Of a stretch of 64,000 nucleotides of DNA, positions 2,910 to 59,264 are shown piece after piece (the first letter of the stretch is position 1; each line of letters starts with the position of its first letter). The notes under the pieces are model-generated. The model searched no databases, was not told the origin of the DNA, and saw only the letters and a program-made list of their open reading frames with translations. The DNA is taken from assembly GCA_050013575.1 (NCBI GenBank), contig JBEKEZ010000002.1, positions 192,736 through 256,735 on the forward strand. Direction: 5' to 3'. This stretch comes from Terriglobia bacterium (GTDB lineage: Bacteria; Acidobacteriota; Terriglobia; UBA7540). The translations under genes were made by a program, and so were the position numbers.

Positions 2910-4868
2910 CTACTCCGCTCCGGCCGTTCGAACAACCGAGGACTCAAAGCACCGGTTAAACTCCGGAAGAAGGCGCTGAACCTCTTGTGACGCATTGCGG
3001 GTTGCGGCGTGCTCCAAGGCGGCTAACTTCTCCTGAAACGCTGCAAAGTGCAAAGCCCTGGGGCGCACCACCCAAATCTTTTCGAATTGCGTGGGCGAGG
3101 CAGTCTCCGTATCCGGATCGAACAATTCCTCCGTCAGTTTTTCTCCGGGGCGCAATTGAGTGACCTCAATCTGAATATCCTTGCCGGGTCGAAGCCCCGA
3201 AAGCTCGATCAGATCGTTCGCCAAGTCGACGATGGGAACAGGGTCGCCCATATCGAGGACGAAGATTTCGCCGGACGACGCCAGCGCTCCCGCCTGAATC
3301 ACCAGGCGAACGGCTTCTGGAATCGTCATCATATACCGCTTCATGTCAGGATGGGTGAGGGTGAGCGGCCCGCCTCGCAGAATCTGTTTTTGGAATAACG
3401 GAATGACGCTTCCCCGGCTCCCCATGACGTTTCCAAAACGCACGCAGGCAAAGCTCGTGGCTTGGCCGTTCCGGCTGTGGGCCTGGACGATGAGTTCGCC
3501 GACGCGCTTCGTCGCACCCATGACGGACAAGGGCTTGACGGCCTTGTCGGTGGAAATGAAGATAAATCGAGAAACGCCGGCGGCCTGCGACTCCTCAACC
3601 AGATTGCGAGTCCCGATCACGTTGTTCAAGACCGCTTCACAGGGGTTGAGTTCCATCAAAGGGACGTGTTTGTGCGCAGCGGCGTGAAAAACGATGTCCG
3701 GCCGGAACTCCGAAAAGACCGCCCGGAGCCGCTCTCGGAATCGGATGTCAGCCACGACCGGATGAATCTCGGGCCCCGCCGCCCCGGCGCTGAGGTGGCC
3801 TGCAACGTCATGAAGACCATTCTCATCTTTGTCGAAAAGAATCAGTCTCTCAGCTTTCAGATTAAATAACTGGTGAGCCAGCTCGGAGCCAATGGAGCCA
3901 CCCGCGCCGGTAATAAGGATGCGGGTCCCTTGATAAGCGGCGTCCACCTGCGCGGCGCCCACCGATAGGTCGACCGTCTCGCGCCCGAGCAGGTCGTCCA
4001 TCTGCACTTCGCGAAAAGCGGCGATGTTGAGTTTGCCGTGCAAGATCTCCTCGAGCGTGGGAATGATCTTCATTTCGACAGAGAGATGCTCGGAGAGAGC
4101 CCACAATCGCTTCAGCGTGGAACGCGGGGGGCGGGTTATGGCGATGACGACCTGGTCCACGTTGTGTTCCTTGACGGCGGTCGCCATGAAGCTCGTAGGA
4201 CCCAACACACGAACACCATTGATGACCGCGCCGACCTTCCTGAAGTCATCATCTAGGAAACCGACGAGTTCAACCTGCGGGTTCGCCTCCATCTCTTTGG
4301 CGAGGCGAACGCCCGCCTGCCCCGCGCCCACCAGCAATATTCGGGTAGACTTCGCGGAGCTCCCATTTCCATTGCCTCCGCCCTGATATCGGAGGCGGCG
4401 GAGAGCCCGCACGCCCATACAGCCGCCCAGCGATAAGCAATATTCGAGAACAATCACGCTGAGCGGAACATGAAGCCAAAACGCGAATGGAACTGAGATA
4501 GGGTATAGAAAGCGGAGCACGAGGAGAAATGCGCTGACGATACTCATGGACCGAGCCATGCTGATGGCGTCAGGAAGGGACACATAGCGCCAAATCGACC
4601 GGTAAATCCCTAACTTCCAGTTGACATAGACTCTGGTGGCCACGAGGTACGGAAACCAGAGGAGAAATTGCTTCAGTGCCGCCCACGGCGGGAGACCTTC
4701 AAACCGAATAAGGTACGCAATGAAGAAGGAGATCGAAAAAATACAAGCGTCGATGATGACTTTGTTAGTTCGGGTGTAAATTCCGGGTTTCATGATTCGG
4801 ACTTGGCTCCTTGGCGGACGTGGAACATTGAAATCGAATAGGCCGCGGTTCACCTGACCGGGCCGCAA
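2910..4868 (-). CDS. membrane-bound nucleotide-sugar 4,6-dehydratase (CapD/PglF/WbpM family)
   Basis: N-terminal multi-TM region, then Rossmann segments LLVGAGQAG and ILITGAGGSIGSEL and a CapD-like C-terminal half. The real start is probably the ATG at 4793 (MKPGIYTRTNKV...). Confidence 0.85.
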   Translation of the reverse strand: MRPGQVNRGLFDFNVPRPPRSQVRIMKPGIYTRTNKVIIDACIFSISFFIAYLIRFEGLPPWAALKQFLLWFPYLVATRVYVNWKLGIYRSIWRYVSLPDAISMARSMSIVSAFLLVLRFLYPISVPFAFWLHVPLSVIVLEYCLSLGGCMGVRALRRLRYQGGGNGNGSSAKSTRILLVGAGQAGVRLAKEMEANPQVELVGFLDDDFRKVGAVINGVRVLGPTSFMATAVKEHNVDQVVIAITRPPRSTLKRLWALSEHLSVEMKIIPTLEEILHGKLNIAAFREVQMDDLLGRETVDLSVGAAQVDAAYQGTRILITGAGGSIGSELAHQLFNLKAERLILFDKDENGLHDVAGHLSAGAAGPEIHPVVADIRFRERLRAVFSEFRPDIVFHAAAHKHVPLMELNPCEAVLNNVIGTRNLVEESQAAGVSRFIFISTDKAVKPLSVMGATKRVGELIVQAHSRNGQATSFACVRFGNVMGSRGSVIPLFQKQILRGGPLTLTHPDMKRYMMTIPEAVRLVIQAGALASSGEIFVLDMGDPVPIVDLANDLIELSGLRPGKDIQIEVTQLRPGEKLTEELFDPDTETASPTQFEKIWVVRPRALHFAAFQEKLAALEHAATRNASQEVQRLLPEFNRCFESSVVRTAGAE

Positions 4869-4966
4869 TGCCTACATAAAGGCACCACGAGTCTCGCCGC
4901 TCCAGCTCTGGAGAGAATCGAGCCCCTCAGTCGATCACAACCCCAGCGCGAAGACGGGGTCATTTC

Positions 4967-5365
4967 TCACAGGCTCCTGTTCCACCCTGCGGAACGGGCG
5001 CATCGCAGGAACGTAATGTCGCTTCCCAGTAGGCCTTCACAGCTCGCAGGGTTGCTTGCAATGAATGTTGAGGCCTTCCACCCCACAGCCTGCTCTGCCT
5101 TGTGCGCCGCTCCCCAAAGCTCGACCGCTTCTGCGCGCCTGATGCGAGAGGGGTCGACCACGACCTGGATTGGTCGCGAGCTCAACCCTATCAGAATTTG
5201 CAGAACCTCCGCGATGGAAACGCTCCGCCCTGACCCAAGTTGATAGACCTCTCCCGGCTCGCCTTCCTCGAGCAACAAGTGGTAGCCGCGGACGATGTCG
5301 CGCCCATCGCTAAAGTCACGGCGCGCCTTGCTGAGCCGATCGGAAGACGGGCCAGCCTGGCATCA
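4967..5365 (-). pseudogene. 3' relic of an NAD-dependent sugar epimerase/reductase (GMD/Rmd-like SDR)
   Basis: The frame reads ...DRLSKARRDFSDGRDIVRGYHLLLEEGEPGEVYQLGSGRSVSIAEVLQIL...DPSRIRRAEAVELWGAAHKAEQAVGWK. This matches only the C-terminal third of extended SDRs. An in-frame TGA lies just upstream, there is no Rossmann N-domain, and the relic abuts the stop of the 5442-7085 gene. Confidence 0.55.
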
Positions 5366-5441
5366 CTTCGCGGCCACGGTCCAGTTGGTGCCGTCGCAGT
5401 ACGCCAGCACATGATTCGTACCGTCCCTTTATCCGCGATAC

Positions 5442-5735
5442 TCACATATTCGCCGCGCCAGTACTCAGCGCGTAGGCGTTGGTGCCGTTAAAGATGAAGC
5501 TCTGCGCACTGCATTTCGAGGCCGTCGAGCCGATAGTCATTCCCCCTAAAACGTTGGTGGGCCAGACGAAAGTATGACTGCCACCGCTGTCCTGGCAGAT
5601 GACGAAGTTGATCGTCTCGCCCGCTCTGGCGTTCGAGAGGGTCGAGCTGGTCACATTACCGGTGAGCGTGATCGTTTGCGTGTTGCCGAGCGAGGCATCG
5701 AAGGTTGGCGTGCTAGAAAAGCTGACGGTGTTGAG
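5442..5735. repeat. dispersed repeat copy 1 (encodes the shared C-terminal module)
   Basis: Nucleotide-level similarity to 54731-55024, for example aagctctgcgcRctgcatttcgaggcSgtcgagccRatMgtcatt. Both copies are 97 codons with no gaps. Confidence 0.8.
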
Positions 5736-7085
5736 CGTCCCGGCGTAGACCTTAAACACGTTTGGCAATTGCGATGTCCACGTCGCCCCTGCGGAATTAA
5801 TGAACTCTGTGGAGGAGCCGTCGATATGGCCGCGCAGGTAGTGAACGTTCGTGTTGGTGCTGTCGATGTAGAGGCCGGAACTATGTCCCCCGGACTGACC
5901 ATCCGAAAGGTGGGGATGTTCCAAGAACAGACCGTCGGTGTTAATGGCGTAAACTTCGGCGTAAGCTCCGGTTTCCCCCGCGTCGTTAAACTGCTCTCCG
6001 AGCATATGGATGCCAACGACCAGGCCATTGGTCCCATCGAGGTATACATCATACGATCCAGACCCCGCGAGGCCGTTCCCTTGATAACTGTTTCCAATAA
6101 ATGTAATGTCCGAAGTGGCGTATCCGGCGTTAGGTTTGAGATGAACGGCCCCTCCGGCAGTCACCTGGTTGCAGCCAATAAAGGTGTTTCGAGAAATCGT
6201 CATTTGGCCTATGCCGTATTCGCCGACAATGGCTCGACCCGCGATAGAAGCAAACTGCGATTGGTCAACTAGTGAGCCCGTGGTGTTTGCATTACCGTAG
6301 CGGATCCCTCCCGTCGTCCAACCAATCTGGACTTGACGAATTCGACTGAAATCAAGAGCGGCAGGACCTGGCGCGTTGAAATTTACTGCGTAACCAGATG
6401 TGTAGGCACCGCCGCCTGCCGGACCACTAAAAGTCATTTTGTCGATGTCAACAAACATCGCCTGAGTGCCGTTCAAGCGCACATGGTCGCGTGTATTAGT
6501 GTTGCCATTGATACGGAAGCCCGACAAGGTTAGCCGAGGTGATGAGTTGGCATCAGCACTAATTGCATCGGTGGCTGCACCTGTAGGATTAAACGTGAAC
6601 AACGTCGCCGCGCCGGTCAAACCGCCGTATCCAATACTGTATGGAGGTCCAGCACTGCCGCATCCGAAGACAGTCAACTGAGGTGAGCCGGTAATGAGAA
6701 AAAGGCTGCTGGCTCCGGTATACGTAAACGTCACGCCGCAACCGAGAAGAATCGTAACGTCCTTCGAGATGGTCACGGTACTCCAATTCTGTGCACCTAC
6801 AAGTCCCCGTGCATCACACGTCCCACCCGTCGCAGGCAAGCTCGCAATACAAGCGATAATCTTCGCTCCGCCGTCAGAGCCCGGCATGAGATCGGCGCGG
6901 ACAGTCGGGCCTTGAGTGTTCGGGTCAACAAACCAGCTACGGACATCGGGCATACGCAGGCTAGGGGTCTGGGGCTGTTGTGCACGCAAGCGCGCGCTGG
7001 AAATTAGAAAATGGAATACAGAAATTAGGAGGAGCACCACCAGTTGCCAATCTCCAGTTTCCAGTTTCTGACTTGGATTCTTCAT
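5442..7085 (-). CDS. secreted right-handed beta-helix (pectate-lyase/tailspike-like) protein with conserved 97-aa C-terminal module
   Basis: Leader is MKNPSQKLETGDWQLVVLLLISVFHFLISSARLRAQQPQ. The body is Gly/Thr/Asn-rich and repetitive (GAKIIACIASLPATGGTCDARG..., GNSYQGNG...). The C-terminal 97 aa are about 77% identical, ungapped, to the C-terminus of the 54731-57916 protein. The ORF track extends to 7139; ATG 7085 is preferred. Confidence 0.7.
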   Translation of the reverse strand: MKNPSQKLETGDWQLVVLLLISVFHFLISSARLRAQQPQTPSLRMPDVRSWFVDPNTQGPTVRADLMPGSDGGAKIIACIASLPATGGTCDARGLVGAQNWSTVTISKDVTILLGCGVTFTYTGASSLFLITGSPQLTVFGCGSAGPPYSIGYGGLTGAATLFTFNPTGAATDAISADANSSPRLTLSGFRINGNTNTRDHVRLNGTQAMFVDIDKMTFSGPAGGGAYTSGYAVNFNAPGPAALDFSRIRQVQIGWTTGGIRYGNANTTGSLVDQSQFASIAGRAIVGEYGIGQMTISRNTFIGCNQVTAGGAVHLKPNAGYATSDITFIGNSYQGNGLAGSGSYDVYLDGTNGLVVGIHMLGEQFNDAGETGAYAEVYAINTDGLFLEHPHLSDGQSGGHSSGLYIDSTNTNVHYLRGHIDGSSTEFINSAGATWTSQLPNVFKVYAGTLNTVSFSSTPTFDASLGNTQTITLTGNVTSSTLSNARAGETINFVICQDSGGSHTFVWPTNVLGGMTIGSTASKCSAQSFIFNGTNAYALSTGAANM

Positions 7086-7089
7086 TTTG
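6999..7089. repeat. heptad-phased inverted arms inside the leader coding region (H1)
   Basis: Arm A: ggaaatt agaaaat ggaatac agaaatt aggagga (6999-7033). Arm B: cagttgc caatctc cagtttc cagtttc tgacttg gattctt cattttg (7041-7089). The arms are imperfectly complementary, and the start codon lies in the last unit. Confidence 0.6.
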
Positions 7090-7200
7090 CACCACGCTCC
7101 AACACTGTCGGCTGGTCCGGGCGTGCGGCGAAGGAACAAGCGAAAAGGGTACCGTCAATTATTGGCTGATTCGTTTGGCTGTAAGGGTCAAACCTTCGCT

Positions 7201-7881
7201 TCACGCCTGAGTATGTCCTCTGTTCTCCCTGGTGGAATCAAAGAGTCGCAGGATGGTACGAAAGAGAAGCTTGAAGTCCCCGACAAGACTGGCCATCTGG
7301 CAGTAGGCCAGGTCAAGCTCCAACTTGCGTGCCAAGATTGTGCCGACATAAAAACTCTCGATGTCGGGATGGCGGGCAAGCAGCCGCTCTTCGTCAATGA
7401 ATGCCAAGGAAGCGGGCCCGGTCATTCCCGGCTTGAATTCCAGCAACTTTCGTTGCTGGCGCGAGTAAGTTACCACGTACTCCGGGAGTTCCGGGCGCGG
7501 GCCGACGAGGCTCATTTCCCCTCGCAGGACGTTGAGCAATTGCGGGATTTCGTCCAGTTTGGTCTTGCGAAGCCACTTCCCAACCCTGGTTATGCGTGCA
7601 TCACCCGAACCGGTAAGTTTAGGGCCCTGGCGGTCCGCGTGTTGGACCATCGTTCGGAGTTTGAGGATTTGGAAAGGGTCGCCCGCCTGCCCGACGCGCC
7701 ATTGGCGGAAGATGATAGGCCCGGGTGATTCAAGATGGATCGCTATTGCACATAATCCTAGAATCGGGCTGGTGATCATCAGGCCGGCTAGGGCGCCCAA
7801 CACGTCGAGGATTCTCTTCCCATACTCGAGGTAGAACGTACTTTGGCGGTCGATTGCTACCTCTTCTCTAGTTTCCATCAA
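7201..7881 (-). CDS. initiating phosphoglycosyl transferase (bacterial sugar transferase, PglC/WbaP C-domain type)
   Basis: 226 aa with one N-terminal TM segment. Motifs: SPGPIIFRQWRVG, FQILKLRTM, DARITRVGKWLRKTKLDEIPQLLNVLRGEMSLVGPRP. Confidence 0.9.
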   Translation of the reverse strand: MMETREEVAIDRQSTFYLEYGKRILDVLGALAGLMITSPILGLCAIAIHLESPGPIIFRQWRVGQAGDPFQILKLRTMVQHADRQGPKLTGSGDARITRVGKWLRKTKLDEIPQLLNVLRGEMSLVGPRPELPEYVVTYSRQQRKLLEFKPGMTGPASLAFIDEERLLARHPDIESFYVGTILARKLELDLAYCQMASLVGDFKLLFRTILRLFDSTRENRGHTQA

Positions 7882-8022
7882 ACTCCAGGATGGTATTCCC
7901 GAATATATTACAGTTTTCTACCCAGCCTATGAACGATTCGTATTATGGCTCTCGAACGACGAATCCGCATTGCTCAGCATCACGGTGGACGACCGGGGCG
8001 CGGCTGAATTCCGATTTCTCCC

Positions 8023-9198
8023 TCATCGACGAAACTTCTGTGCAATATCAGTCAGACTCTCAATCACGCGGTCGACGTCATTATCTGTCATGCCGGGATA
8101 GATGGGCAACGAAATACACCGCTCAAAGTAATTCTCTGCCACCGGGAACTCACCCGGCCGATAGCCCCACTCCCTTTGGTAGTAAGGATGGAGGTGCAAG
8201 GGAATGAAGTGCACTGCCGTACCGATTCCGCGCTGATGCAACTCTTCGATAACTTGGTCACGATGCATGCGCACCACGGCTGGTTCCACCAGGATGACGT
8301 AAAGATGCCAAGCGTGTTGAACGTGGGGCGCGACCGGCGGCGTTCGATATGCATCCACCGGAGAGAGGCCCTGGCTGTATCTTTTGGCGATAGCCAGGCG
8401 CCGTCTCCACATGGCGTCACACTTGGCAAGCTGTACCAGCCCCAACGCCGCCTGAATATCCGTCAGGTTGTACTTGAATCCAGCTTCCAAAACCTCGTAA
8501 CGCCACGAACCTTGTGCACTGTATCGTTTCCAAGCATCCTGGCTCATCCCGTGGAGCCGCATGAGGCTGATCCGGGAAGCCAGTCGGTCATCGTCGGTGG
8601 TCACCATTCCACCTTCGCCAGTGGTAATCGTCTTTGTCGCATAGAAACTGAAAGCTGTAATGGGACTCACCGTCCCGATAGAACGCTCGTGGTACTTCGC
8701 GGGCAGCGCGTGCGCAGCGTCCTCAATGGGCAGCAATCCCTTCGCTTTAGCCAATTCAAGCAGCGCATTCATATCACAAGGATGGCCGGCAAAGTGAACG
8801 GGGATGATGGCGCGCGTCCTAGCCGTAATCTTCTTCTCGGCATCGGGCATGTCCAGATTGAAGTAGCAAGGTTCACAATCAACCAAGACCGGCTTGGCCT
8901 TGAAATAGGCAACCACCTCCGCCGTGGCCGTAAAGGTCAGGGTCGGCACCAGGACTTCTTCACCTTCTTTGAGTCCGATGGCATCCAAGGCGAGGTGAAG
9001 CGCGGCTGTGCAGGAGCTCACGGCCAGGGCATGTTTGCAGCCGATATAGCGCGCAAAAGCCTCTTCCAACTGCTGGGTCTTCGGGCCCGTCGTCAGCCAG
9101 CCGTTGCGGAGCACTTCCGAAACCGCCTCGATTTCTTCCTGCCCGATCGAGGGGCGATGAAAGGGGATAAAGGATTCCTTACTCACAGGTCGGATCAC
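8023..9198 (-). CDS. DegT/DnrJ/EryC1 family nucleotide-sugar aminotransferase (PglE-like)
   Basis: 391 aa. The PLP-lysine context SFYATKTITTGEGGMVTT and an N-terminal PFHRPSIGQEEIEAV are typical of the family. Confidence 0.9.
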   Translation of the reverse strand: MIRPVSKESFIPFHRPSIGQEEIEAVSEVLRNGWLTTGPKTQQLEEAFARYIGCKHALAVSSCTAALHLALDAIGLKEGEEVLVPTLTFTATAEVVAYFKAKPVLVDCEPCYFNLDMPDAEKKITARTRAIIPVHFAGHPCDMNALLELAKAKGLLPIEDAAHALPAKYHERSIGTVSPITAFSFYATKTITTGEGGMVTTDDDRLASRISLMRLHGMSQDAWKRYSAQGSWRYEVLEAGFKYNLTDIQAALGLVQLAKCDAMWRRRLAIAKRYSQGLSPVDAYRTPPVAPHVQHAWHLYVILVEPAVVRMHRDQVIEELHQRGIGTAVHFIPLHLHPYYQREWGYRPGEFPVAENYFERCISLPIYPGMTDNDVDRVIESLTDIAQKFRR

Positions 9199-9268
9199 TC
9201 TGCCTCGGCTGTCGTTAGTTGCTGAAGTCGCCTCTGCCCAGCCTGAAGTCAGTCTTCAGACCTTGGGC

Positions 9269-10297
9269 CTACACCAGCTGGTCCCACTCGATCAGCCCCG
9301 CAGCCCACGAATAACCCACGCCAAATCCGATAAGCATCATTTTCGCCCCCGGCTTGAAGCGCCCCTGGTCGGCGTGCGCACGGAGGAGAATCGGAATGGT
9401 GGCCGAAACCGTGTTCCCGACCTCTTCCATGAAGAATGGCGCCTTTTCCGGCGGAAGACCCAGCTTCTTGAGGAGATGCTCGAGCATGAATCGACTGGCT
9501 TGGTGAAAGATAAAGAAGTCGATATCGCTTATGCTTAATCCGGTCTTATCGAGAAGTGCCTGGATGGACTTGGGAACCGTACTGACCGCAAAGGCAAAGA
9601 CCGCTGCTCCATCCATGAAAAGCTGGTGAGGTGCTCGAACGCAGCCGTTCTGTTCGACGTGTTGATTAAAGATGGACGGCGAGGCAGGAGTTCGCGCCGC
9701 ACCCGCCGGAACGATGAGATTACGCGCGCCACTCCCGTCGGTTCCGAAAACGAAATCTCCAATGCGGCCAGGACTAGAACCGGATTCTGAAATGAGCGTC
9801 GCGGCGGCTCCGTCGCCAAAAAGGGGACGGTTAAGACGGTCTCGGGGATTAATGTACTTGCTGTAAGTCTCGGCGGTAAGTAGTAGAATGTTTTTGCATG
9901 TACCCGATTCGACGAGGCACTTTGCGATGCTCAGCCCGTAGACATACCCGGAACAGCCCTGGTTGAAATCAATCGCGCCCGCGCTCTTGGGGATTCCCAA
10001 GCGATGCTGGATGCAGCACGCCGTGGCAGGAAGGAAGTAGTCCGGAGATTGAGTGCAGAACAGTACGAAATCGATCTGGGATGCTTGTGCCGTGTTCCGC
10101 TCGAACAGCTTGCCGGCGGCCTTGCACGCTAGATCCCCAGCGGTTTCGTCCGGCGCAGCGAGGTGTCGGGCTCGGATCCCCGTTTTCTGGTAGATATCGT
10201 CCATCCGCCAATCGGGATTCTCCCTGGCTAACTGTTCGTTGGTCTCGACCTTAGCCGGCAAGTAGTATTCAATTGCAGCGATTCTCGCGTGACCCAT
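9269..10297 (-). CDS. 3-oxoacyl-ACP synthase III (FabH-like KAS III)
   Basis: Motifs: FNQGCSGYVYGL (active-site Cys), FIFHQAS and GNTVSATIPI. The start is set at ATG 10297 (MGHARIAAIEYYLP), which has a GAGGTA SD 5 nt upstream. The ORF track extends to 10396. Confidence 0.85.
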   Translation of the reverse strand: MGHARIAAIEYYLPAKVETNEQLARENPDWRMDDIYQKTGIRARHLAAPDETAGDLACKAAGKLFERNTAQASQIDFVLFCTQSPDYFLPATACCIQHRLGIPKSAGAIDFNQGCSGYVYGLSIAKCLVESGTCKNILLLTAETYSKYINPRDRLNRPLFGDGAAATLISESGSSPGRIGDFVFGTDGSGARNLIVPAGAARTPASPSIFNQHVEQNGCVRAPHQLFMDGAAVFAFAVSTVPKSIQALLDKTGLSISDIDFFIFHQASRFMLEHLLKKLGLPPEKAPFFMEEVGNTVSATIPILLRAHADQGRFKPGAKMMLIGFGVGYSWAAGLIEWDQLV

Positions 10298-10496
10298 AAG
10301 GTACCTCGGCCTGTCCTGTTTACTGGACTGCCTGCTCCTACCGAAACGTACTCCCGCTTTGCTCGAACCTTGCCATTGTGCCTGAAGCCGCGTCAAAATC
10401 TGGCGAGCTCACCCAGCTCCTTAACGGGGCAACTATAGCTGCCCGCTAGTTTGAATGCCGCCTCGCCATTCCTCGACACTTCCTGCTCGCCGGGGG

Positions 10497-10736
10497 CTAA
10501 TCTTGAAGCAAGCCTTGCGATTTGAGCACCTCGATTATCTGTCCCACTGTTGTCAGCTTCGAAACCAGGTCGTCGGACAGCTCGACGTGCAACTCCTGGT
10601 CGATGGTGGCAAGAATAGTGACCTGGGCCATCGAGTCCCATGTTTTCACAGTCTTCGGGCCATCCTCCATTTTGAGCGACCCCCTCGGAGCTTCGACAAT
10701 ATCTTCTAGTATTGCGACGAATGCTTCTGTCTTCAT
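10497..10736 (-). CDS. acyl carrier protein
   Basis: 79 aa, acidic. It has a WDSMAQV phosphopantetheine-Ser motif and a 4-nt ATGA overlap with the upstream GNAT gene. Confidence 0.8.
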   Translation of the reverse strand: MKTEAFVAILEDIVEAPRGSLKMEDGPKTVKTWDSMAQVTILATIDQELHVELSDDLVSKLTTVGQIIEVLKSQGLLQD

Positions 10737-11401
10737 CCCTGACCCCCCTGATTACGAATGCGATAACAGAGTTCCACGAGCGCCGGCGCCGGCGGCACAT
10801 GTGTCTCGCGCAGCACTTCGAAGCCCATCTTCTGATATGCCCGGATGAGATTCTGGTTTTCTTTTCGGACCTCCAAATAAACGTGCTTGCCACCAAGTTT
10901 CTTGATGTGGTCGACGCAGGCAGATACAATCGCCAGTCCATAGCCTCGCGCTTCTTCCTCAGGCAGGACGGCGGCCGAAGCCAGGGCCGCGATGTCCTTC
11001 TCACTGGGCGTCGCGAGCCGCTGAAATACCGAACGGACGATTCTCACGAGGATCAAAGGTCGCTTGGCCACCGCCCTCAAGGAGTAAACCGCGAAGAGGA
11101 ACCATCGCCTGATGAAGAGCCCCCGGTAAAACTTCCCCGGACTGAACGTGCCAGCACAAAACCCGAGTACCCGCCCGTCCCGCTCGAAGACGTAACTGAT
11201 GCCCCAGCTGGAACGCTGGACCTCCGCGTAGTAAAGGGCCATAAACTTCCGTCCCAGCGAGGTCAGGAAATAGCCAGGAAAAGCAGCCATGTGTATGCCA
11301 ACAACCACAGGGACATCCTCCGGCCTCATCGGCCGAACATGTTGTCGTCCCATCTTTCTCAAATACAGCAGAGCAAGTTCACTGCTCGGAATTCCCGACA
11401 T
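10733..11401 (-). CDS. GNAT family N-acyltransferase
   Basis: 222 aa. Acyl-CoA/ACP pocket-like region AAVLPEEEARGYGLAIVSACVDHIKKLG. It is translationally coupled to the ACP gene. Confidence 0.75.
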   Translation of the reverse strand: MSGIPSSELALLYLRKMGRQHVRPMRPEDVPVVVGIHMAAFPGYFLTSLGRKFMALYYAEVQRSSWGISYVFERDGRVLGFCAGTFSPGKFYRGLFIRRWFLFAVYSLRAVAKRPLILVRIVRSVFQRLATPSEKDIAALASAAVLPEEEARGYGLAIVSACVDHIKKLGGKHVYLEVRKENQNLIRAYQKMGFEVLRETHVPPAPALVELCYRIRNQGGQG

Positions 11402-11706
11402 GGCGATTGGTCCTATTCACACGCCTCCTTGCGTTTCCCGCAGGCCAAAAGGCTTCACTCCCAGGCACCGAATAAGACCTTCCTTGTGCTTGCGGGAACT
11501 TGGCAAGAAACTACAGTCCCCCACAGCCTGTGCTGGGGTACAAATCAACCAGCACAACGGCTCGAGTCCTCGTGAAACTGGCAACTGAATCATGCTCCCA
11601 CGCGGTCAACACGAGTTCCCAGGCATGCTGAACGAAAATATCGCCGGACCACGACATGACAAATGATTTGCAGCCCCGGCCCCCCTCGCAGCGACACCTG
11701 GCTGCC

Positions 11707-12957
11707 TTAAGAGGGCTTGGTCGTCTCTTCCTGGCCCATTCCGGCCGTTTCGGAAAGAATTCGGGCAATTTCTCCTGTGCAGATTCTCCGGCTGAAGTGT
11801 TCCTCCAGATACTTTCGTCCGCGCATCCCCATCTGCTCGATCTCCTCGCGATGGACGTAGGCGTAGTGAAGAGCCTCGGCCAGATCTTTCGGATCGCCGG
11901 ACTCGACACAGATGCCACAATCGGCGGTCTTCACCAGACGAGCAATCTCACTCTCAGGAGGGGCAGTGGCAAGCACCGGGCGGCCGCTGGCCATCATCTT
12001 GAAAATCTTCGAGGGGACGGAGGCGTTCGCAGCGGACGAGTCCAAGGTGACCAAGTTCATGTCGGCGGAGCGAAGAACCGTGGGATAGCGCTCCAGTGGC
12101 TCAAAGGGCCTGAACAAGACGTTGTCGAGCCCTCTGACCTGCACGTCCTCCAGGAGTCGTTGCTTCTTCACGCCTTCGCCGATGATCACCAGCCTGAAGG
12201 GCTCGCTCCGGAGCAAACCCAGCGCCTGAATGACACATTCGAGGTTGGAGTTATGTGTCAAACCACCGGAATATACCACAACGAACTTATCTTTCCCCCA
12301 CGACTCGCGCAAAGCCGGATCGGGCGGACCGGGGCGAACGAAATGAGGGTCAGCCCAATTTGCGACCACGCGAATCTTCGAATCTGGTACGCCTTTGCCC
12401 AAGAGGTTTTGTCGAAACCCCTCGGATATGACCACGATGGCATGGGCATGCCGATAGATCCATTTCTCCATCCACTTGAAGAAACGAATGGCGGTGCGGT
12501 TCCTCAGGACACCGACTGCGACCGCAACATCGGGATGGATGTCCTGGATGTTGACGACGACTTTCGCGGACTTCAGCCAGCCCAACACGGAGGCCGTCAG
12601 GCCGAGCGGCAGAGGCGGAAGGGCCGCGTAAATGACATCTACCCGGGGACTCGCCAGAACGCCGCCGAGGAACGAGGAGACGATGAAGCTCCCGAAATTT
12701 GCGACCCGTTGCCAGAAAGCCTTGCTCGGAGTGGCATAGATGTAAGTGCGGAAAACGTGCGCACCACCCAGCTCCTCACGCTGATACAACTTGTGACGGT
12801 ATGGCGGAGGAATGACTCCGTCGGGGTAGTTTGGGAAAGCCGTAAGGACAGTGACGCGATGTCCTCCGGCCAGCAAATCCTCCGTCAACTCCCAAAGCGA
12901 GACGGCGAAACCAACCTCTTCAGGTCTATAGTACTCGGTCAGCAACAAGATATTCAT
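11707..12957 (-). CDS. glycosyltransferase family 4 (WcaI-like)
   Basis: 416 aa with an MNILLLTEYYRPEEVG start typical of WcaI-type GT4 and a C-terminal GT-B half (VPSKIFKMMASGRPVLA). Confidence 0.85.
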   Translation of the reverse strand: MNILLLTEYYRPEEVGFAVSLWELTEDLLAGGHRVTVLTAFPNYPDGVIPPPYRHKLYQREELGGAHVFRTYIYATPSKAFWQRVANFGSFIVSSFLGGVLASPRVDVIYAALPPLPLGLTASVLGWLKSAKVVVNIQDIHPDVAVAVGVLRNRTAIRFFKWMEKWIYRHAHAIVVISEGFRQNLLGKGVPDSKIRVVANWADPHFVRPGPPDPALRESWGKDKFVVVYSGGLTHNSNLECVIQALGLLRSEPFRLVIIGEGVKKQRLLEDVQVRGLDNVLFRPFEPLERYPTVLRSADMNLVTLDSSAANASVPSKIFKMMASGRPVLATAPPESEIARLVKTADCGICVESGDPKDLAEALHYAYVHREEIEQMGMRGRKYLEEHFSRRICTGEIARILSETAGMGQEETTKPS

Positions 12958-35452: not shown

Positions 35453-35545
35453 CGGAAACTCGAAATTCGAAACTGAAAACGGGACGCAGAGCTTGAGTGA
35501 CCGGTTTCCACTTTCCAGTTTCCAGTTTCCAATTTCTGCTTCTCC
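35453..35545. repeat. heptad-phased inverted arms (H2)
   Basis: cggaaac tcgaaat tcgaaac tgaaaac (35453-35480), then gtttcca ctttcca gtttcca gtttcca atttctg cttctcc (35504-35545). The arms are imperfectly complementary. Confidence 0.6.
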
Positions 35546-42313: not shown

Positions 42314-42477
42314 AGTAGGCAGTAGGCAGTCGGCAGTTGGGGAAATCAGAAATCAGAAATTAGAAATCAGAATCAAAGACTCAGCGATTGAGGTTCTGCG
42401 TTCTGCTCTCTAATTTCTGCTTTCTAACTTCTGATTTCTGCTTTCTGATTTCTAATTTCTGATTTCTCCCTACTGCC
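42314..42477. terminator. long heptad-phased hairpin between convergent genes (H3), probable bidirectional terminator
   Basis: Left arm: agtaggc agtaggc agtcggc agttggg gaaatca gaaatca gaaatta gaaatca gaatcaa (42314-42376). Right arm: 12 phased units ttctgcg...ttctgat ttctaat ttctgat ttctccc tactgcc (42394-42477). About 30 bp of near-perfect complementarity (gggaaatcagaaat..tagaaatcagaa). It overlaps the stop codon of the HD gene. Confidence 0.6.
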
Positions 42478-46080: not shown

Positions 46081-46197
46081 AGTGAAGCAGTGGCAAGTGG
46101 CGATACAGCCATCGGGTTTCGGGATTAGGGATTCGGGGTTCGCAAATCCCGATCCCACATTCATCCGCGAACCCCGAACACCGAAACCCGAATCCCC
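46081..46197. repeat. heptad-phased element with hairpin (H4)
   Basis: agtgaag c agtggca agtggcg, then gggtttc gggatta gggattc ggggttc gcaaatc (46114-46148), facing gcgaacc ccgaaca ccgaaac ccgaatc (46167-46194). The terminal 12 bp, ttcggggttcgc with gcgaaccccgaa, are perfectly complementary. Confidence 0.6.
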
Positions 46198-47467: not shown

Positions 47468-47693
47468 AGAAGCTGGAAGCTAGGAGTTAGAAGCTAGAAG
47501 GCAGAAGGCAGTGCGCAGTAGGCGGTGGGCCGAGGAGAGCGGGCGCGGCGCCGGAAGTGTAAGAGTGGCAAATGGGTCATGGTAAATGGGAAATGTGAAA
47601 TGGCCTGTTCGCCATTTACCATTTCCCATGGCCCATTTGCCATTTGAAATGTTTTGCTGGCCCCTCGACATTCGCTTTCTGCCTACTGCCCAC
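47468..47693. repeat. nested heptad-phased palindromic element (H5)
   Basis: Outer array of 9 phased units: agaagct ggaagct aggagtt agaagct agaaggc agaaggc agtgcgc agtaggc ggtgggc (47468-47530), pairing with ctttctgcctactgcccac (47675-47693). Inner hairpin: ggcaaat gggtcat ggtaaat gggaaat gtgaaat (47567-47601) with gccattt accattt cccatgg cccattt gccattt (47611-47645). Confidence 0.65.
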
Positions 47694-54005: not shown

Positions 54006-54431
54006 TTACACTCGGGCATGCGCGAACCCGAGAAGCCTTCTCCGACCGAATCGCCGATGTTGTTTGATCCCGCAAAGCGGGACCGAGCCCGCATCGGAAT
54101 CGCTCACGGCGCTGGGCGTAGCGGGGAAGCGAATGCCCCACATGTCGCCTTCCGCCTGGAGGAGTTGAAGGCCGAGATGGTAGAACCCCTCGCGGTCCGT
54201 GGTATTCACCCAAACGACGCTGAAGGTGCCTGCGACGTCGTTCTTCGTGCTCACCACGTGTACCTCTGAGTCCAGTTCCACAAGATTCTTGATCCGAGTC
54301 ATGCACCCGTGCTGGCTGATCAGGATGGTTTGTGTCGATTCGTCAAAAAACTTGTTTTCTGTGGACATGCCGCGCACTCGAATGGGCAGAGCTAACATCA
54401 CTCGAGCGCTTCTGCGGCGGGCGTCATCCAT
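54006..54431 (-). CDS. PilZ-domain protein
   Basis: 141 aa. An RRSARV...PIRVRG N-motif followed by a D/ExSxxG-like segment ESTQTILISQHGC. Confidence 0.55.
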   Translation of the reverse strand: MDDARRRSARVMLALPIRVRGMSTENKFFDESTQTILISQHGCMTRIKNLVELDSEVHVVSTKNDVAGTFSVVWVNTTDREGFYHLGLQLLQAEGDMWGIRFPATPSAVSDSDAGSVPLCGIKQHRRFGRRRLLGFAHARV

Positions 54432-54730: not shown

Positions 54731-55024
54731 TCACATGTTAGTGACGCCTGGAGAGGTTGCTTCCGCGTTGCTGCCGTCGAACACAAAGCTCTGCGCGCTG
54801 CATTTCGAGGCGGTCGAGCCAATCGTCATTGCGCCCTTCACGTTTGAGGGCCAGACGAAGGTCCTGCTGCCGGTCGAGTCCTGGCAGATGATGAAGTTCA
54901 ATTGCTCGCCCGCAGAAGCGTTGGCGAGCGTCGAACTGGTGACGTTGCCGGTGAGCGTAATCTTTTGGGTGTTGCCGAGGGACGCGTCGAAGGTAGGCGT
55001 CCCTGAGAACGTCACGACGTTCAG
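54731..55024. repeat. dispersed repeat copy 2 (encodes the shared C-terminal module)
   Basis: See 5442-5735. My hand count is 75 of 97 identical residues, with no gaps. Confidence 0.8.
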
Positions 55025-57916
55025 TGATGTGGCAAAGTTTCGCGCCGTAACCGCGCCCGTGCCGCTAGGCGTGAGTGTGACGTTCTGGTTCGTTCCGCCC
55101 GCGGTGAGCGAGATGGCGCCGGTCGACGTCACGCCCCCATTGATCACGGGCGAGGTCAGCGTCTTGTTAGTCAACGTGTCGACAGAAGCCCTGTAGACGA
55201 AGGTGTCGGTCACGTCTTGCAGGGTCTGGGTGCGCGCGCCTGTTGCCGTGCCGGTGACTTTGATGTTGTTGGTAGCCGCACTGCCCAGCCACAGGTTGCC
55301 GAACGGGAGCGAGGCCGACCCAAGGTCCCCGACGCCGGCGGAGGAGGGTGTGATCGTCTGCGGTACGCTGAGCGCGCTCGCTCCGAAGATATAAGATTTG
55401 GTGCCGTTCGAGGCTGTCAAGACAAACTGTGAAGACGAAGGATTGAGGTAGAGAGAGTCCGACCCCGCAGCGTCAGAGTTTATCATGTCGTAGACGGGCT
55501 GATTGGCGGAACAGTTCGTGCCCGTGTTGACGGGGGTCCCGTTATTCACTTGCGCAGCCGGGCAGCCAATCCGGATGGCTGCGCCACCGTAAACGCTGGG
55601 GGCAGTCGGGAGCCACATTCCGTAGAAGAATAGCCCTTGAGCAGTGATCACGGCAGGCGGCGAGAAGGGAGCCCCATTGACATAGTCCGCATACTCTGAC
55701 GGGTCGTTCAAATTTTGGACGCCAATCGCATTTTCGCTCCTCTGCCATCCGTGCCCGGACAGTTGAATCAGCATCGTGCTGCTCGGCGCGTTCCCCACGT
55801 AGGGCAATAATTTGTGCACGCCGGAGAACACGTTCGCGCTGGAATCGAATTGCCAGTAGTGTTGATTTTCGACCATCTCGCCGCTTGCCCAGTTGACGTT
55901 GTTCGGGGCCAGCGTTGCCGTGTCCGAAAGCTTCCCGTTTTGCTGCCACGAAAGAACCTCGGCCCCCGGAAAAACGTAGTACTGGTTGGACTGCTGCCAG
56001 CCCGTGCAGGTGGGTGGCGAGCAGCTTCCGCTGATCCCATGGCCGGAGTAACCGATTCCGTTGTTGCCAACCGCCCATGGAATCAGGTGGGAGCTGTCAG
56101 TGACGGCAAGTATCGGGAACGCCTGACGAACACAGTTCACCGCGGGCGAGACTCCGCACGTCGAACTATATCCAGCCTCGCCGTAACGGTCCGAGACCAA
56201 CTCGACATAGTAACCCGCGCAGGCTCCAGCGTTGCCCGATGCGCACGCGCCACCGTTGGCAATGCTCACTACCGCTCCCGGAGGGTGCGGCTTATTGAAA
56301 GTCGCAGTGAAGGCGGTTTGAGGGTTTCCGGAGAAGGCAGTGGCTTTCACAATTTCGTAACTTCCGTCATCGCCGATGACGATGGGCGTGTTAGTGGTGA
56401 CACCGCTCAAGTTCGTCCCCATGGTGTAACTGGCCGGCGTCACTGTGCAGGTGGCAGGCAGGGTGGTAGTAGGGTTGCAGTTCGGACCCGGGATCGCAGC
56501 GTCGGTCAGGGCCAGCACGGTGTTCGCAGTCCACGACGTGCCGTTGCCAACATACTGCGGCCAGGTCCATGCGCCGAGGTTATACGTCCCAAGGGAAGAG
56601 AGCGTGCCATTGCTGCCTTTGGAAATATCGAGCAACGGGCGCCCGGCGCCCTGCTCGGTCTCGGACTGGAGATTGCTCACGGTGATCTGCGTGGCCCCTT
56701 GAGATAATGCAGGGCAGGAGGGCGGACCACAGATCGTGCCGGAGTATACGTCACTCACCTGATAAGCGGTGAAGCCGGCCGACTCCAACCCCTCGTCACC
56801 CATCGTGCTCGCGCCTCCGTAGTTCATGCTCAACACTTCGAGGCCGATGGTGTCGCCCGTCGCCCCGCTGAGCGTCTGGATGCTCAGAGGAATGTGTTCA
56901 GCAGGCGTGTAGTACTGTCCGGCGATGTTAACGGCCTTGAAGACGCTTTTGTCGGCGTAATAGGGCCAGTTGTAGAGATTCCTTCCGCCATCAAAGACCT
57001 TCTGGGAAAACTCGTTTTCCACTACATTCATGAACTGAGTATAGCCGCTGCTTCGGTAGCGATTCCCCACCCACTGATTGCCGACGATGAGATTCGGAAG
57101 GCCGCCGCTGTCAGTCGCGTTGCCCGGCGAATCGTAGTTGGTGACGTGAAGCCCGTCGCGGAAGTCCCAAACCTGGAGATTGGGACTATTCGAGCACCCA
57201 TTGGAGTTACCTGTCATCGAGGTGATGCCGCTGTAGATACTGCCCGCGCCGCAGATTGCCTCCGTGGAGCTGGACTTGCTCGCGGGATTCACGATGAGCG
57301 CGCCGTTCGTTCCGGCATTTGAGATGGCGCTGGCACAAGGCGTGGAACCGGAAAATTGGTCGCAGAATCGCGTGGCCTCGACGTGACCCGTGGAGTCGGT
57401 GCCCAGCGGCTGCGGCACAGACCAAGTTCGCACGTCGGTGATCGAGTTGATGGACGAGCTCCCCGTGCTGACTTCCGCCAGAGGGACTTGACCGGCGACG
57501 AAGCCGCTGGTGTTAGAGGCCGGCACACAGTTATTGGCTGGGTCCAGATACACGTAATTCGTCGCGCTCGCGGTCATGGGCAGGGTGCCGCCGGGATAGC
57601 TGACTGGGGCCTGCGGATTGCCGCAAAAAGCCGTTCCCGCGGCAATGTTCACGTTGGGCCAAGTCCCCGCCGTCACCCAATAGCCAGGACCCACGCCCTG
57701 GACGTACTTCGCATTGACGGCGTAAACGGGCTGGCCGCCTTCCGCCTGCGGCTGCTGCCCCAAAACTAGTGACGAGTGACGAGTGAAGAGTGACGAGCAA
57801 GTTAGAACGACCACGATCAGAGCAACTCGCAGCGCATCGTGCCCGTTCCGACCCCTGACTCCTGACTCCTGACTCCTAACTTCTAGCTTTTGACTTTTAG
57901 ATGCTGCTTTCAACAT
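54731..57916 (-). CDS. large tail-fibre-like secreted protein (1061 aa) with conserved leader and C-terminal module
   Basis: GAGGTG SD 5 nt before the ATG. Leader: MLKAASKSQKLEVRSQESGVRGRNGHDALRVALIVVVLTCSSLFTRHSSLVLGQQPQ. Fibre-type motifs: DLGSASLPFGNLWLG and DTLTNKTLTSPVING. The Gly/Thr/Ser/Asn/Cys-rich body and the C-terminal 97 aa are shared with the 5442-7085 protein. Confidence 0.75.
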   Translation of the reverse strand: MLKAASKSQKLEVRSQESGVRGRNGHDALRVALIVVVLTCSSLFTRHSSLVLGQQPQAEGGQPVYAVNAKYVQGVGPGYWVTAGTWPNVNIAAGTAFCGNPQAPVSYPGGTLPMTASATNYVYLDPANNCVPASNTSGFVAGQVPLAEVSTGSSSINSITDVRTWSVPQPLGTDSTGHVEATRFCDQFSGSTPCASAISNAGTNGALIVNPASKSSSTEAICGAGSIYSGITSMTGNSNGCSNSPNLQVWDFRDGLHVTNYDSPGNATDSGGLPNLIVGNQWVGNRYRSSGYTQFMNVVENEFSQKVFDGGRNLYNWPYYADKSVFKAVNIAGQYYTPAEHIPLSIQTLSGATGDTIGLEVLSMNYGGASTMGDEGLESAGFTAYQVSDVYSGTICGPPSCPALSQGATQITVSNLQSETEQGAGRPLLDISKGSNGTLSSLGTYNLGAWTWPQYVGNGTSWTANTVLALTDAAIPGPNCNPTTTLPATCTVTPASYTMGTNLSGVTTNTPIVIGDDGSYEIVKATAFSGNPQTAFTATFNKPHPPGAVVSIANGGACASGNAGACAGYYVELVSDRYGEAGYSSTCGVSPAVNCVRQAFPILAVTDSSHLIPWAVGNNGIGYSGHGISGSCSPPTCTGWQQSNQYYVFPGAEVLSWQQNGKLSDTATLAPNNVNWASGEMVENQHYWQFDSSANVFSGVHKLLPYVGNAPSSTMLIQLSGHGWQRSENAIGVQNLNDPSEYADYVNGAPFSPPAVITAQGLFFYGMWLPTAPSVYGGAAIRIGCPAAQVNNGTPVNTGTNCSANQPVYDMINSDAAGSDSLYLNPSSSQFVLTASNGTKSYIFGASALSVPQTITPSSAGVGDLGSASLPFGNLWLGSAATNNIKVTGTATGARTQTLQDVTDTFVYRASVDTLTNKTLTSPVINGGVTSTGAISLTAGGTNQNVTLTPSGTGAVTARNFATSLNVVTFSGTPTFDASLGNTQKITLTGNVTSSTLANASAGEQLNFIICQDSTGSRTFVWPSNVKGAMTIGSTASKCSAQSFVFDGSNAEATSPGVTNM
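57778..57902. repeat. two heptad-phased arrays inside the leader coding region (H8)
   Basis: agtgacg agtgacg agtgaag agtgacg agcaagt (57778-57812) and cctgact cctgact cctgact cctaact tctagct tttgact tttagat (57854-57902). About 5 of 7 positions per unit are complementary between the arrays. Confidence 0.6.
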
Positions 57917-57999: not shown

Positions 58000-58662
58000 T
58001 TACCAAATCTGAATGCTCGCCGTGACCCCCGCATCCGAGGCGGTGAGATACAGGTTGGTAGCGTCGAACAGAGTTGTTGGTTGAAACCACAGCGCTCCGC
58101 CGGAGGTCATGTAAATGATTGCGCCCAGCGGTGCCCGCCCAAGATTGTGGTTAGTTGAAAAATTGCCCGCTGCCGCGGCACTCACGGCCAGCCGACCGTA
58201 AACCTTGGTGGCGTTTGTCACCGCGAGGACGTGGGTCGCGTCGGTGGTCACGCTGCCGAGATATGCGTCGCCCGGCGTTGCCGGCGACCCCGTCAGATTG
58301 AAATAGAACCCGGTGATCGAACTCCACCACAGGAAACTCGTGGAGCTGGCCGGCGCCGCTGAGGGGGTCGGGGACGAAGGAGCCCAGCGCATTCCTTGCG
58401 CGTAGAGCACTCCCGGTGAAAGACCCGGCGTCAAATTCGCCGAAGTTGCAAGCGTGAAGCCGGCGATCACACCAGATAGGCCAATGTCGCCAAGCCACGC
58501 GGCGACAGTCCCAGCGGCCAGGACCGCATTCCGGACGTCGTTGGCGTCCTGCAAAAGCGAGTCAATGGTCTGCCAGTTGGTGTCCAGGTCAGTTTCGTAG
58601 TTGTTTCCGTGCTGCGGCTCGATAATTCCTTTTCGCGGCAAAACTGTTCTTACGATCGCCAT
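58000..58662 (-). CDS. short tail-fibre-like protein (220 aa)
   Basis: Start set at MAIVRTVLPRKGIIEPQHGNNYETDLDTNWQTIDSLL. This has the LP-x-P...W...N...ID pattern common at the N-termini of phage fibre and minor tail proteins. The C-half is Ala/Gly/Thr/Ser-rich and beta-like. The ORF track extends to 58815. Confidence 0.6.
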   Translation of the reverse strand: MAIVRTVLPRKGIIEPQHGNNYETDLDTNWQTIDSLLQDANDVRNAVLAAGTVAAWLGDIGLSGVIAGFTLATSANLTPGLSPGVLYAQGMRWAPSSPTPSAAPASSTSFLWWSSITGFYFNLTGSPATPGDAYLGSVTTDATHVLAVTNATKVYGRLAVSAAAAGNFSTNHNLGRAPLGAIIYMTSGGALWFQPTTLFDATNLYLTASDAGVTASIQIW

Positions 58663-58760: not shown

Positions 58761-59264
58761 TTAATCTGATGAGACTCCGAGCGGCAGATTCACGCTCGAT
58801 CTTGTGGCCAAGCAATACACTTTCACCGTGCCGTCATTAGTCGGGGTTTCTGCGCCGCCCCCCACGTAGTAACTGACCACCGTGGTCACTATGCCGTTGG
58901 CGTCGTTGATGTCCACGATCCATCTGTAAATTTGTCCCGCGCCGCCGTTTGAATTCGAGAGCGACGGGAAAGCAGTTTGTCCCGGCGTGAATCCCGGCCC
59001 CGGCGGGCGGCTCGCTGCAAAAATAGGGATGAACAGGCACTCAGGATAAGAATACTGGTAACCATCGACCGGGCTGGCCGGCACGGGCACGGTGTTCCCA
59101 TTTGCGTAGAAGCCCATATAAATCAACTCGGGGCGCACCGCGGCAAACTTGGCGTTCTGCGAGATCTTGATCATGGAATAGTCGGTGAGCGGCTGGTTTG
59201 CCGAAATCGAGGCGTCGGGCAAATCGATGAAACCGGGTATGGCGCTGAGCAATAGCTGGGACAT
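58761..59264 (-). CDS. hypothetical protein (167 aa)
   Basis: ATG preceded by a GAGGAG SD. No signal peptide and no family recognised. It is co-oriented between the giant protein gene and the fibre-like genes. Confidence 0.6.
   Translation of the reverse strand: MSQLLLSAIPGFIDLPDASISANQPLTDYSMIKISQNAKFAAVRPELIYMGFYANGNTVPVPASPVDGYQYSYPECLFIPIFAASRPPGPGFTPGQTAFPSLSNSNGGAGQIYRWIVDINDANGIVTTVVSYYVGGGAETPTNDGTVKVYCLATRSSVNLPLGVSSD

Follow-up and report, generated by a model that had tools for sequence, protein, structure and literature searches.

Two otherwise dissimilar genes in a 64-kb window of Terriglobia DNA (the whole 64,000-nucleotide stretch of contig JBEKEZ010000002.1 that was analysed) end in one and the same domain. 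Gene A, a 1061-aa open reading frame (ORF; 54731..57916 on the minus strand, as are all genes and gene segments located below), occupies the last structural slot of a prophage-like element and is predicted to encode an exported tail-fibre/tailspike-like protein. Gene B, an ORF that extends over 5442..7139 from its first TTG (565 aa) or over 5442..7085 from an ATG (547 aa), lies co-directionally within an exopolysaccharide (EPS) gene cluster and is predicted to encode an exported tailspike-like protein without the N-terminal domain (N-domain) found in A. The segment shared by the two is a true homologous, all-beta C-terminal domain of approximately 100 residues that belongs to PF26209 and caps phage tail-fibre/tailspike-like proteins, and A and B are members of one large mosaic family of Terriglobia and their (pro)phages. 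Taken as a whole, a reading in which this PF26209 domain, borne by exported proteins of a mosaic family in two genomic contexts, serves as a docking knob appears reasonably probable to us.

The shared C-terminal segment

The module comprises residues 959-1061 of A (54734..55042), where it takes the form of a PF26209-type beta domain bearing the Cys pair C(QD)...(K)C(S), and residues 463-565 of the long ORF of B (5445..5753). BLASTP aligned the two copies without gaps at 76 of 103 identical positions (E = 7e-43), and a comparison of the full proteins gave no significant A-B high-scoring segment pair outside the C-terminal segment (best 0.25). Over the final 97 residues the count is 75 of 97, again ungapped, and identity reaches back no further than about 103 residues from the C-terminus. 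A preliminary description of this DNA, which had used the ATG start at 7085 for gene B, had reported the ungapped 75/97 match over the last 97 codons, runs of DNA identity within it and unrelated central regions in the two proteins; we obtained the same count, the quoted runs are present in the alignment, and the dissimilarity of the centres is what the BLASTP comparison returned. A tblastn search of the 64-kb window recovered these two copies only.

At the nucleotide level, similarity between A and B starts at the module boundary and runs to the stop codon, with 70.6% identity over 103 codons, a longest exact run of 14 nt and differing codons at 31 of the 76 identical residues. The similarity far exceeds what chance would give and represents conservation at the protein level, not recent DNA exchange, since this degree of DNA identity together with the many synonymous differences rules out a recent gene conversion between A and B.

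Identity of the module

PF26209.2 (Pfam), which bears the family name Phage_phiTE_241_C in the gene-table annotation, is precomputed on 36 of 49 module homologues that are 46-82% identical to the module of A, as well as on gene B's own cluster (P0193, a 547-aa protein); on a further homologue, P0129, the precomputed annotation is flagged as weak. When A, B and the bare modules were scanned against Pfam, NCBIfam and PHROG, the module matched no family, and the bare modules had no Pfam match at E<=10, the Pfam copy scanned being one without the PF26209 model.

Fold prediction with AlphaFold (AF2, 46-sequence alignment) yielded a compact, all-beta model with a mean pLDDT (predicted local distance difference test) of 96. 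Foldseek searches against BFVD, a collection of predicted viral structures, gave 131 viral-protein matches at E<1e-3 with template modelling (TM) scores of up to 0.88. The top matches lie at TM 0.84-0.88, the best of them being Arthrobacter phage Jinkies gp36 (TM 0.87), and many are named tail fiber, fiber or minor tail protein. Both Jinkies gp36 and a 'tail fiber protein' of Bradyrhizobium phage BDU-MI-1 are large proteins with the module at the C-terminus, encoded just after baseplate J genes; neither has a signal peptide or the Cys pair. The two window copies end at the stop codon and thus hold the same C-terminal position as in the viral members of PF26209, with which the fold agrees as well. 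Fold matches in the PDB were weak and confined to parts of phage spikes or fibres, namely CBA120 TSP4, the tailspike gp83 of Solidus and a tail-fibre/chaperone complex; sequence queries against the PDB with A and B and with the profile of the module gave no real match. A literature search on PF26209/phiTE_241 found nothing relevant, and neither a function nor a solved structure of the family was found in the literature or the PDB. The terminal beta domain of phage-fibre type that the preliminary description had supposed from the residue pattern is borne out by the PF26209 annotation, the 131 viral fold matches and the C-terminal position in tail-fibre-slot proteins of isolated phages; the fold prediction and Foldseek comparison that it had proposed as a check gave the confident all-beta model and the viral fibre matches just described.

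Abundance of the module and weight of the A-B pair

An exhaustive profile search covering 1.84 billion cluster representatives matched the module in 20,262 proteins at E<=1e-3, in 4,481 at E<=1e-10 and in 462 at E<=1e-30. The module-bearing proteins are 100-2164 aa long and mostly carry the module at the extreme C-terminus, and tandem arrays reach up to 9 copies in one chain. Of 313 domain hits, 202 lie at the extreme C-terminus and 111 are internal. Some proteins (P0056, P0095, P0123) contain 7-9 matched module stretches in a single chain, small ones of 100-180 aa consist of a signal peptide and a single module, and in the stand-alone proteins P0003 and P0019 signal peptide and module are accompanied by nothing else; such tandem and stand-alone layouts are typical of adhesion or binding repeats.

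Two peptide patterns alone retrieved 202 confirmed module copies from IMG/VR viral contigs and 36 from species-representative genomes, the latter mostly metagenome-assembled genomes (MAGs) of Terriglobia, together with Bdellovibrio, Syntrophobacteraceae, Saccharibacteria, Actinomycetota and others. The Terriglobia-type module with its Cys pair also occurs, at 53-73% identity, on large proteins of MAGs from unrelated phyla, namely a Bdellovibrio sp. (L015; a protein of more than 1618 aa with a 73% identical module), a member of the Syntrophobacteraceae (L019) and a woesearchaeote (L029, Woesearchaeota), for which horizontal spread, phage carriage or binning errors are possible.

Among the proteins retrieved, dozens of unrelated lengths have modules 78-85% identical to that of A or B, as compared to 77% between A and B, and the two are not mutual closest relatives in the module. 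The preliminary description had attached significance to the pairing unless the module should turn out to be ubiquitous. Further copies, for which it had suggested a search, were found in thousands of other proteins, and with 20,262 clusters at E<=1e-3 and closer modules elsewhere that significance is lost. The A-B pairing is real but ordinary, the consequence of a very widespread and strongly conserved domain. The module is strongly conserved in a large Terriglobia-associated subgroup, and the 77% identity between A and B reflects family-wide purifying selection on the knob, not a special link or a recent exchange.

Family architecture

The N-terminal region of A is also present in approximately 40-45 of the best module-bearing proteins (BLAST). 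The N-termini of the family have a basic, often low-complexity start, followed by a hydrophobic stretch and an AxA/G|QQPQ junction, a pattern typical of Sec signal peptides and their signal-peptidase-I site. That the N-terminal 'SQKLE' similarity is untranslated repeat DNA, with the proteins starting just before QQPQ, was considered and rejected: homologues all keep open hydrophobic leaders and show no conserved start codon immediately ahead of QQPQ, the latter meaning that translation must include the leaders. In A, the predicted Sec-type leader (57758..57916; residues 1-53, ...SSLVLG|QQPQ) spans two period-7 tandem arrays; in B, it is encoded by 6981..7085 and reads MKNPSQKLETGDWQLVVLLLISVFHFLISSARLRA|QQPQ, ending in ...ARLRA|QQPQ.

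The N-domain of A (57407..57745; approximately residues 58-170, about 110 residues) is modelled as a beta fold resembling phage receptor-binding proteins, with a pLDDT of 79-96 in its core (AF2). Its best PDB fold match in Foldseek is the tail fibre of cyanophage A-1(L) (8KEC; E 8e-5, probability 1.0, TMq 0.52-0.57), followed by weaker matches to the receptor-binding protein of lactococcal phage p2 and to Mtd of a Bordetella phage. The variable centre of A (55043..57406) has no Pfam, PDB or PHROG match, and its sole distant similarity is to one protein from a Syntrophobacteraceae MAG. Many pairs within the family share N-domains at 70-93% identity and modules at 70-91% identity with nothing detectable between them. 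The family layout consists of a Sec-type leader, an optional N-domain of about 110 residues, a centre that is exchanged as a whole and, at the C-terminus, a constant knob bearing the Cys pair. The conserved-ends, variable-middle cassette that had been proposed from the comparison of A with B therefore exists at the level of the family, where N-domain and module enclose unrelated middles, but not for A and B themselves, whose common parts are the leader type and the C-terminal end only, B being without an N-domain.

Gene A at the end of a prophage tail module

Within a siphovirus-like prophage, gene A takes up the terminal, tail-fibre position. It is the last gene of the co-directional string 1485-167-220-A, the upstream tail genes of which lie at 59346-63803 (1485 aa), 58761-59264 (167 aa) and 58000-58662 (220 aa) in a prophage-like element that continues past the window end to neck/capsid genes. 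The 1485-aa protein has weak PHROG tail-fibre matches, and further upstream on the source contigs there are a major-capsid-E-like gene (Phage_cap_E), a tail-completion gene (Phage_tail_S/Neck1, PHROG 1e-17) and a major-tail-like gene (weak PHROG match). The order 127-1485-167-220-[module gene] is kept in at least 8 Terriglobia MAGs and 4 IMG/VR contigs, with a differing middle of the last gene, and in one of the MAGs (L013) the tail slot holds a B-like protein without N-domain. Of the features expected of a virion tail fibre, the gene position after the tail-tip genes applies to A, with the order kept in 12 other loci, and does not apply to B in its EPS locus, and the assembly in the cytoplasm without an export signal applies to neither, as A, B and their homologues carry predicted leaders; for an N-terminal virion-attachment domain, the N-domain of A with its resemblance to the A-1(L) tail fibre is a candidate, and B has none.

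The exact gene A protein was found in 58 metagenome blocks; exact proteins are located on peat-bog metagenome contigs, and the relatives are from Terriglobia. A 1010-aa call of gene A, considered as a natural variant of the 1061-aa version, was dismissed, the DNA being identical. Beyond the window, the element (L006, 1-19073) also has 1020-aa and 557-aa genes upstream of A. Directly downstream of A lies a gene with a PilZ domain (54006..54431), and in six other syntenic loci, too, PilZ genes come after the module gene. L008, L010, L011, L013 and L014 have one or two of them, separated from the module gene by an ORF of about 350 aa, the N-terminus of which appears CorA-like on visual inspection; these PilZ genes could be cargo of the element or mark a preferred insertion site. 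No tRNA gene is present anywhere in the window, and no promoter or terminator signals were found near gene A. In non-syntenic genomes, a Pfam census of 109 neighbours of module genes returned TPR, PEP-CTERM, OEP, DUF2612, GT and other families, a set too mixed to classify contexts.

Gene B in an exopolysaccharide locus

Gene B lies in a long EPS cluster that extends over 2.9-35 kb of the window, between a Bac_transf sugar transferase gene and a Polysacc_synt_2 gene; the flanking genes (2910..12957; Pfam scan) encode Polysacc_synt_2, Bac_transf, a DegT aminotransferase, KAS III and GT4. A 90%-identical relative of B (L044) occupies the same position after Bac_transf, and at another locus (L016) a further module protein adjoins a Polysacc_synt_2 homologue. 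The core of B (5754..6980), which begins DVRSWFVDPN...GGAKIIACIASLPATGGTCDARGL and presumably adopts a beta-helix fold, follows directly after the leader and is colinear in alignments with the start of the post-N-domain part of P0180, P0084, P0050 and P0074. By virtue of this colinearity, gene B is a family member without N-domain, and one that is stably kept in the EPS locus. The idea of a beta-helix comes from sequence patterns and from the colinearity with tailspike-like relatives.

The next closest protein to the B core, P0195 (L124; 47% identity), has a signal peptide, a different C-terminal domain and a place in a phage-like gene string, which includes SLT lysozyme genes. P0195 and P0196, both with signal peptides, end in another conserved domain of about 70 aa (...SQIF.F.DSSLG..L.VTCNT...F.VTA...P.CL.Y.IVN), which may be a second swappable end domain of the same family.

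Within gene B, the GC content of third codon positions (GC3) steps from 0.57 in the core (5736-6962) to 0.77 in the module (5445-5735); its EPS neighbours range from 0.65 to 0.69, and the prophage genes from 0.70 to 0.76, matching housekeeping genes. This step gives weak support to a mosaic origin of B. It would also be accommodated by an explanation in which the DNA of the conserved module and of the leader serves as a recombination handle for swapping central cassettes between prophage and chromosomal copies, including A and B, as would the sharp boundaries of the mosaic family at N-domain and module, the homologue of the B core with a different C-terminal domain in a phage context (P0195), and some pairs of module DNA from different elements with up to 83% identity and a 33-nt exact run. 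We nonetheless think this quite unlikely: most runs between loci measure 11-24 nt, at or below typical minimal processing segments, the A and B modules have diverged heavily at synonymous sites (70.6% DNA identity, 14-nt longest run), and function alone explains the strong protein conservation. For A and B in particular, the same two figures contradict the recombination handle that the preliminary description had offered as one of two explanations.

Export and the cysteine pair

In 284 of 286 domains, the two module cysteines (C-Q-D and K-C-S) either occur together or are missing together. On viral contigs, proteins with the Cys pair have a hydrophobic N-terminus in 28 cases and none in 2, and those without the pair in 12 and 36 cases, respectively (28/30 vs 12/48, Fisher p = 1.3e-9). 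Judged by their sequences, A and B are both likely to be exported, and the Cys pair would form a disulfide, in keeping with exported proteins; its co-occurrence with a hydrophobic N-terminus fits such a bond.

The association of the Cys-pair variant with leaders is likewise what would be seen if the Terriglobia module were a C-terminal sorting or anchoring signal, comparable to the C-terminal domain (CTD) of type IX secretion system (T9SS) cargo, that takes Sec-exported passengers across or onto the outer membrane, and the proteins described here follow the logic of T9SS cargo, in which very diverse passengers are preceded by a Sec leader and followed, at the C-terminus, by a conserved beta domain of about 100 aa. 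Even so, such a role is very improbable: Pfam and NCBIfam scans gave no match to Por_Secre_tail/TIGR04183-type or NCBIfam sorting domains, the census of neighbours showed no cognate secretion genes nearby, the module also occurs internally and in tandem, and tail fibres of isolated phages carry it without having a leader.

Function of the knob

In the reading that we prefer, the exchangeable centre would carry an enzymatic or specificity function, which in B probably consists in processing the polysaccharide made by its locus, and the knob, as an autonomous domain at the distal end, would attach the protein to a conserved glycan or surface ligand in a lectin-like manner; alternatively, it may stabilise an oligomer. 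Lectin-like docking is favoured because of the stand-alone module proteins, the tandem arrays, the compact monomer model and the surroundings of QD..G.RTF.WP. The model places this most conserved motif in a part of the chain that is well ordered, forms no regular strands and abounds in aromatic and polar residues. The receptor-binding tip envisaged in the preliminary description is not supported here; a constant tip combined with a varying centre is the reverse of the usual arrangement in receptor-binding proteins.

This constancy of the knob under a varying centre is equally what a trimerisation or folding cap would show, that is, a foldon- or auto-chaperone-like element nucleating the assembly of the upstream fibre or beta-helix and conserved for the sake of the protein itself, not of a ligand. 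Such a cap has its precedents in C-terminal auto-chaperones common to different tailspikes, as in S74 (PMC10769870) and the C-terminus of P22 (PMC3357383), and it would account for the same core motif in phages of unrelated hosts, for the module at the extreme C-terminus in 202/313 hits and for weak PDB fold matches that are all phage spike or fibre assembly pieces. Yet the module is modelled confidently as a compact monomeric domain, and the stand-alone proteins of signal peptide plus module, the tandems of up to 9 and the internal position in 111/313 hits are unusual for a trimerisation cap; moreover, there is no S74 Pfam match and no SDxxxK motif. We therefore regard the cap as a possible but distinctly less probable explanation, and tentatively favour a binding role of the knob.

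Several points weigh against the reading with a docking knob. The motif QD..G.RTF.WP is identical in phages of Actinobacteria, rhizobia, cyanobacteria and Acidobacteria, and a motif shared across hosts speaks against a receptor site specific to one host and would be just as compatible with a structural role. Membership in PF26209 is a precomputed annotation, flagged as weak for gene A, and as the Pfam copy scanned was without the model, it comes with no bit score against the curated cut-off. The core of B had no Pfam match at E<=1, and a search for its homologues gave 6 proteins, none with a beta-helix Pfam annotation. Finally, a Sec leader is unexpected on a virion tail fibre, and signal peptides were judged by sequence pattern and hydrophobicity only.

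Period-7 arrays

Tandem arrays with a period of 7 and 4-10 copies were detected by TRF at 229-260, 35504-35536, 42314-42467, 46112-46142, 47468-47645, 57768-57797 and 57850-57881. The heptanucleotide arrays are scattered through the window and often form nearly reverse-complementary pairs that are foldable into long hairpins; RNA folding gave z = -6.6 for an intergenic pair (42335-42475) and z = -3.3 for the pair in the leader of A. Both arrays of gene A are located inside the region coding for the signal peptide, and homologous genes in seven other loci keep the two-array layout with differing heptamer units. With a period of 7, slippage would shift the reading frame. Among the contigs compared, the leader of A occurs in a single version only.

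A rather unlikely scenario combines several of these features. The tail-fibre slot of Terriglobia prophages may hold a Sec-exported, disulfide-bonded protein that is not part of the virion, such as a surface fibre of the lysogen or a secreted glycanase resembling the mosaic adhesive trimer (MAT) proteins discussed below. By remodelling or masking the host EPS, it might exclude superinfecting phages or bring about lysogenic conversion. Gene B would then have been recruited to the EPS locus as a domesticated copy that has no anchor domain, and heptamer slippage could switch expression on and off.

Significance

The two genes add two members to a catalogued but functionally uncharacterised family of phage-fibre domains, and their pairing in itself has no special meaning. 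The wider value lies in the family, which comprises more than 20,000 clusters without known function or solved structure, and for which the window offers a natural comparison, with the same knob on a protein in a prophage tail slot and on a protein of an EPS locus, both apparently exported. Should the knob bind envelope glycans, host recognition by phages would be linked through it to the processing of host polysaccharides in Acidobacteria, a dominant but poorly studied soil phylum. Less ordinary are the Sec leaders and the probable disulfide in a tail-fibre slot, the copy without N-domain in the EPS locus and the leaders encoded by heptamer arrays.

Comparison with known systems

The window copies share their C-terminal position and predicted fold with Jinkies gp36 of PF26209. 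Unlike the examples from isolated phages, they belong to a subgroup in which the module has a Cys pair and sits on proteins with Sec-type leaders. The S74 intramolecular chaperone of endosialidases and tail fibres is likewise a conserved C-terminal module of otherwise unrelated tailspikes and fibres, but differs from the window modules in size and fold, and neither a Peptidase_S74 match (Pfam, E<=10) nor an SDxxxK motif was found in either module sequence.

With modular phage tailspikes and depolymerases, the family has in common a three-part layout (in tailspikes, an N-terminal anchor, a central beta-helix enzyme and a C-terminal domain) and the position after the tail-tip genes, and tailspikes likewise exchange their central parts between related phages; the shuffling of domains is known from host-interaction proteins, for example in PMC10684548. 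In contrast to virion-assembled tailspikes, which normally have neither Sec-type leaders nor a disulfide, the window family has leaders and a probable disulfide, and gene B further departs from them by its place in a host EPS locus and by having no anchor domain.

The closest functional analogue of the whole proteins is the MAT superfamily of Bdellovibrio, whose cell-encoded, phage-fibre-like fibres are displayed on the surface and bind glycans (PMC10769870); their genes occur in families of several members, and their end domains fold independently and can be swapped (PMC10769870). Gene A is likened to them by layout alone. In MAT proteins the C-terminal tip varies and the N-terminal end is constant, whereas here both ends are constant and the middle varies; gene A is located in a prophage tail module and not at a free site of the chromosome, and gene B is without an N-domain. 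A protein of a Bdellovibrio MAG (L015), in turn, carries the very module described here at 73% identity.

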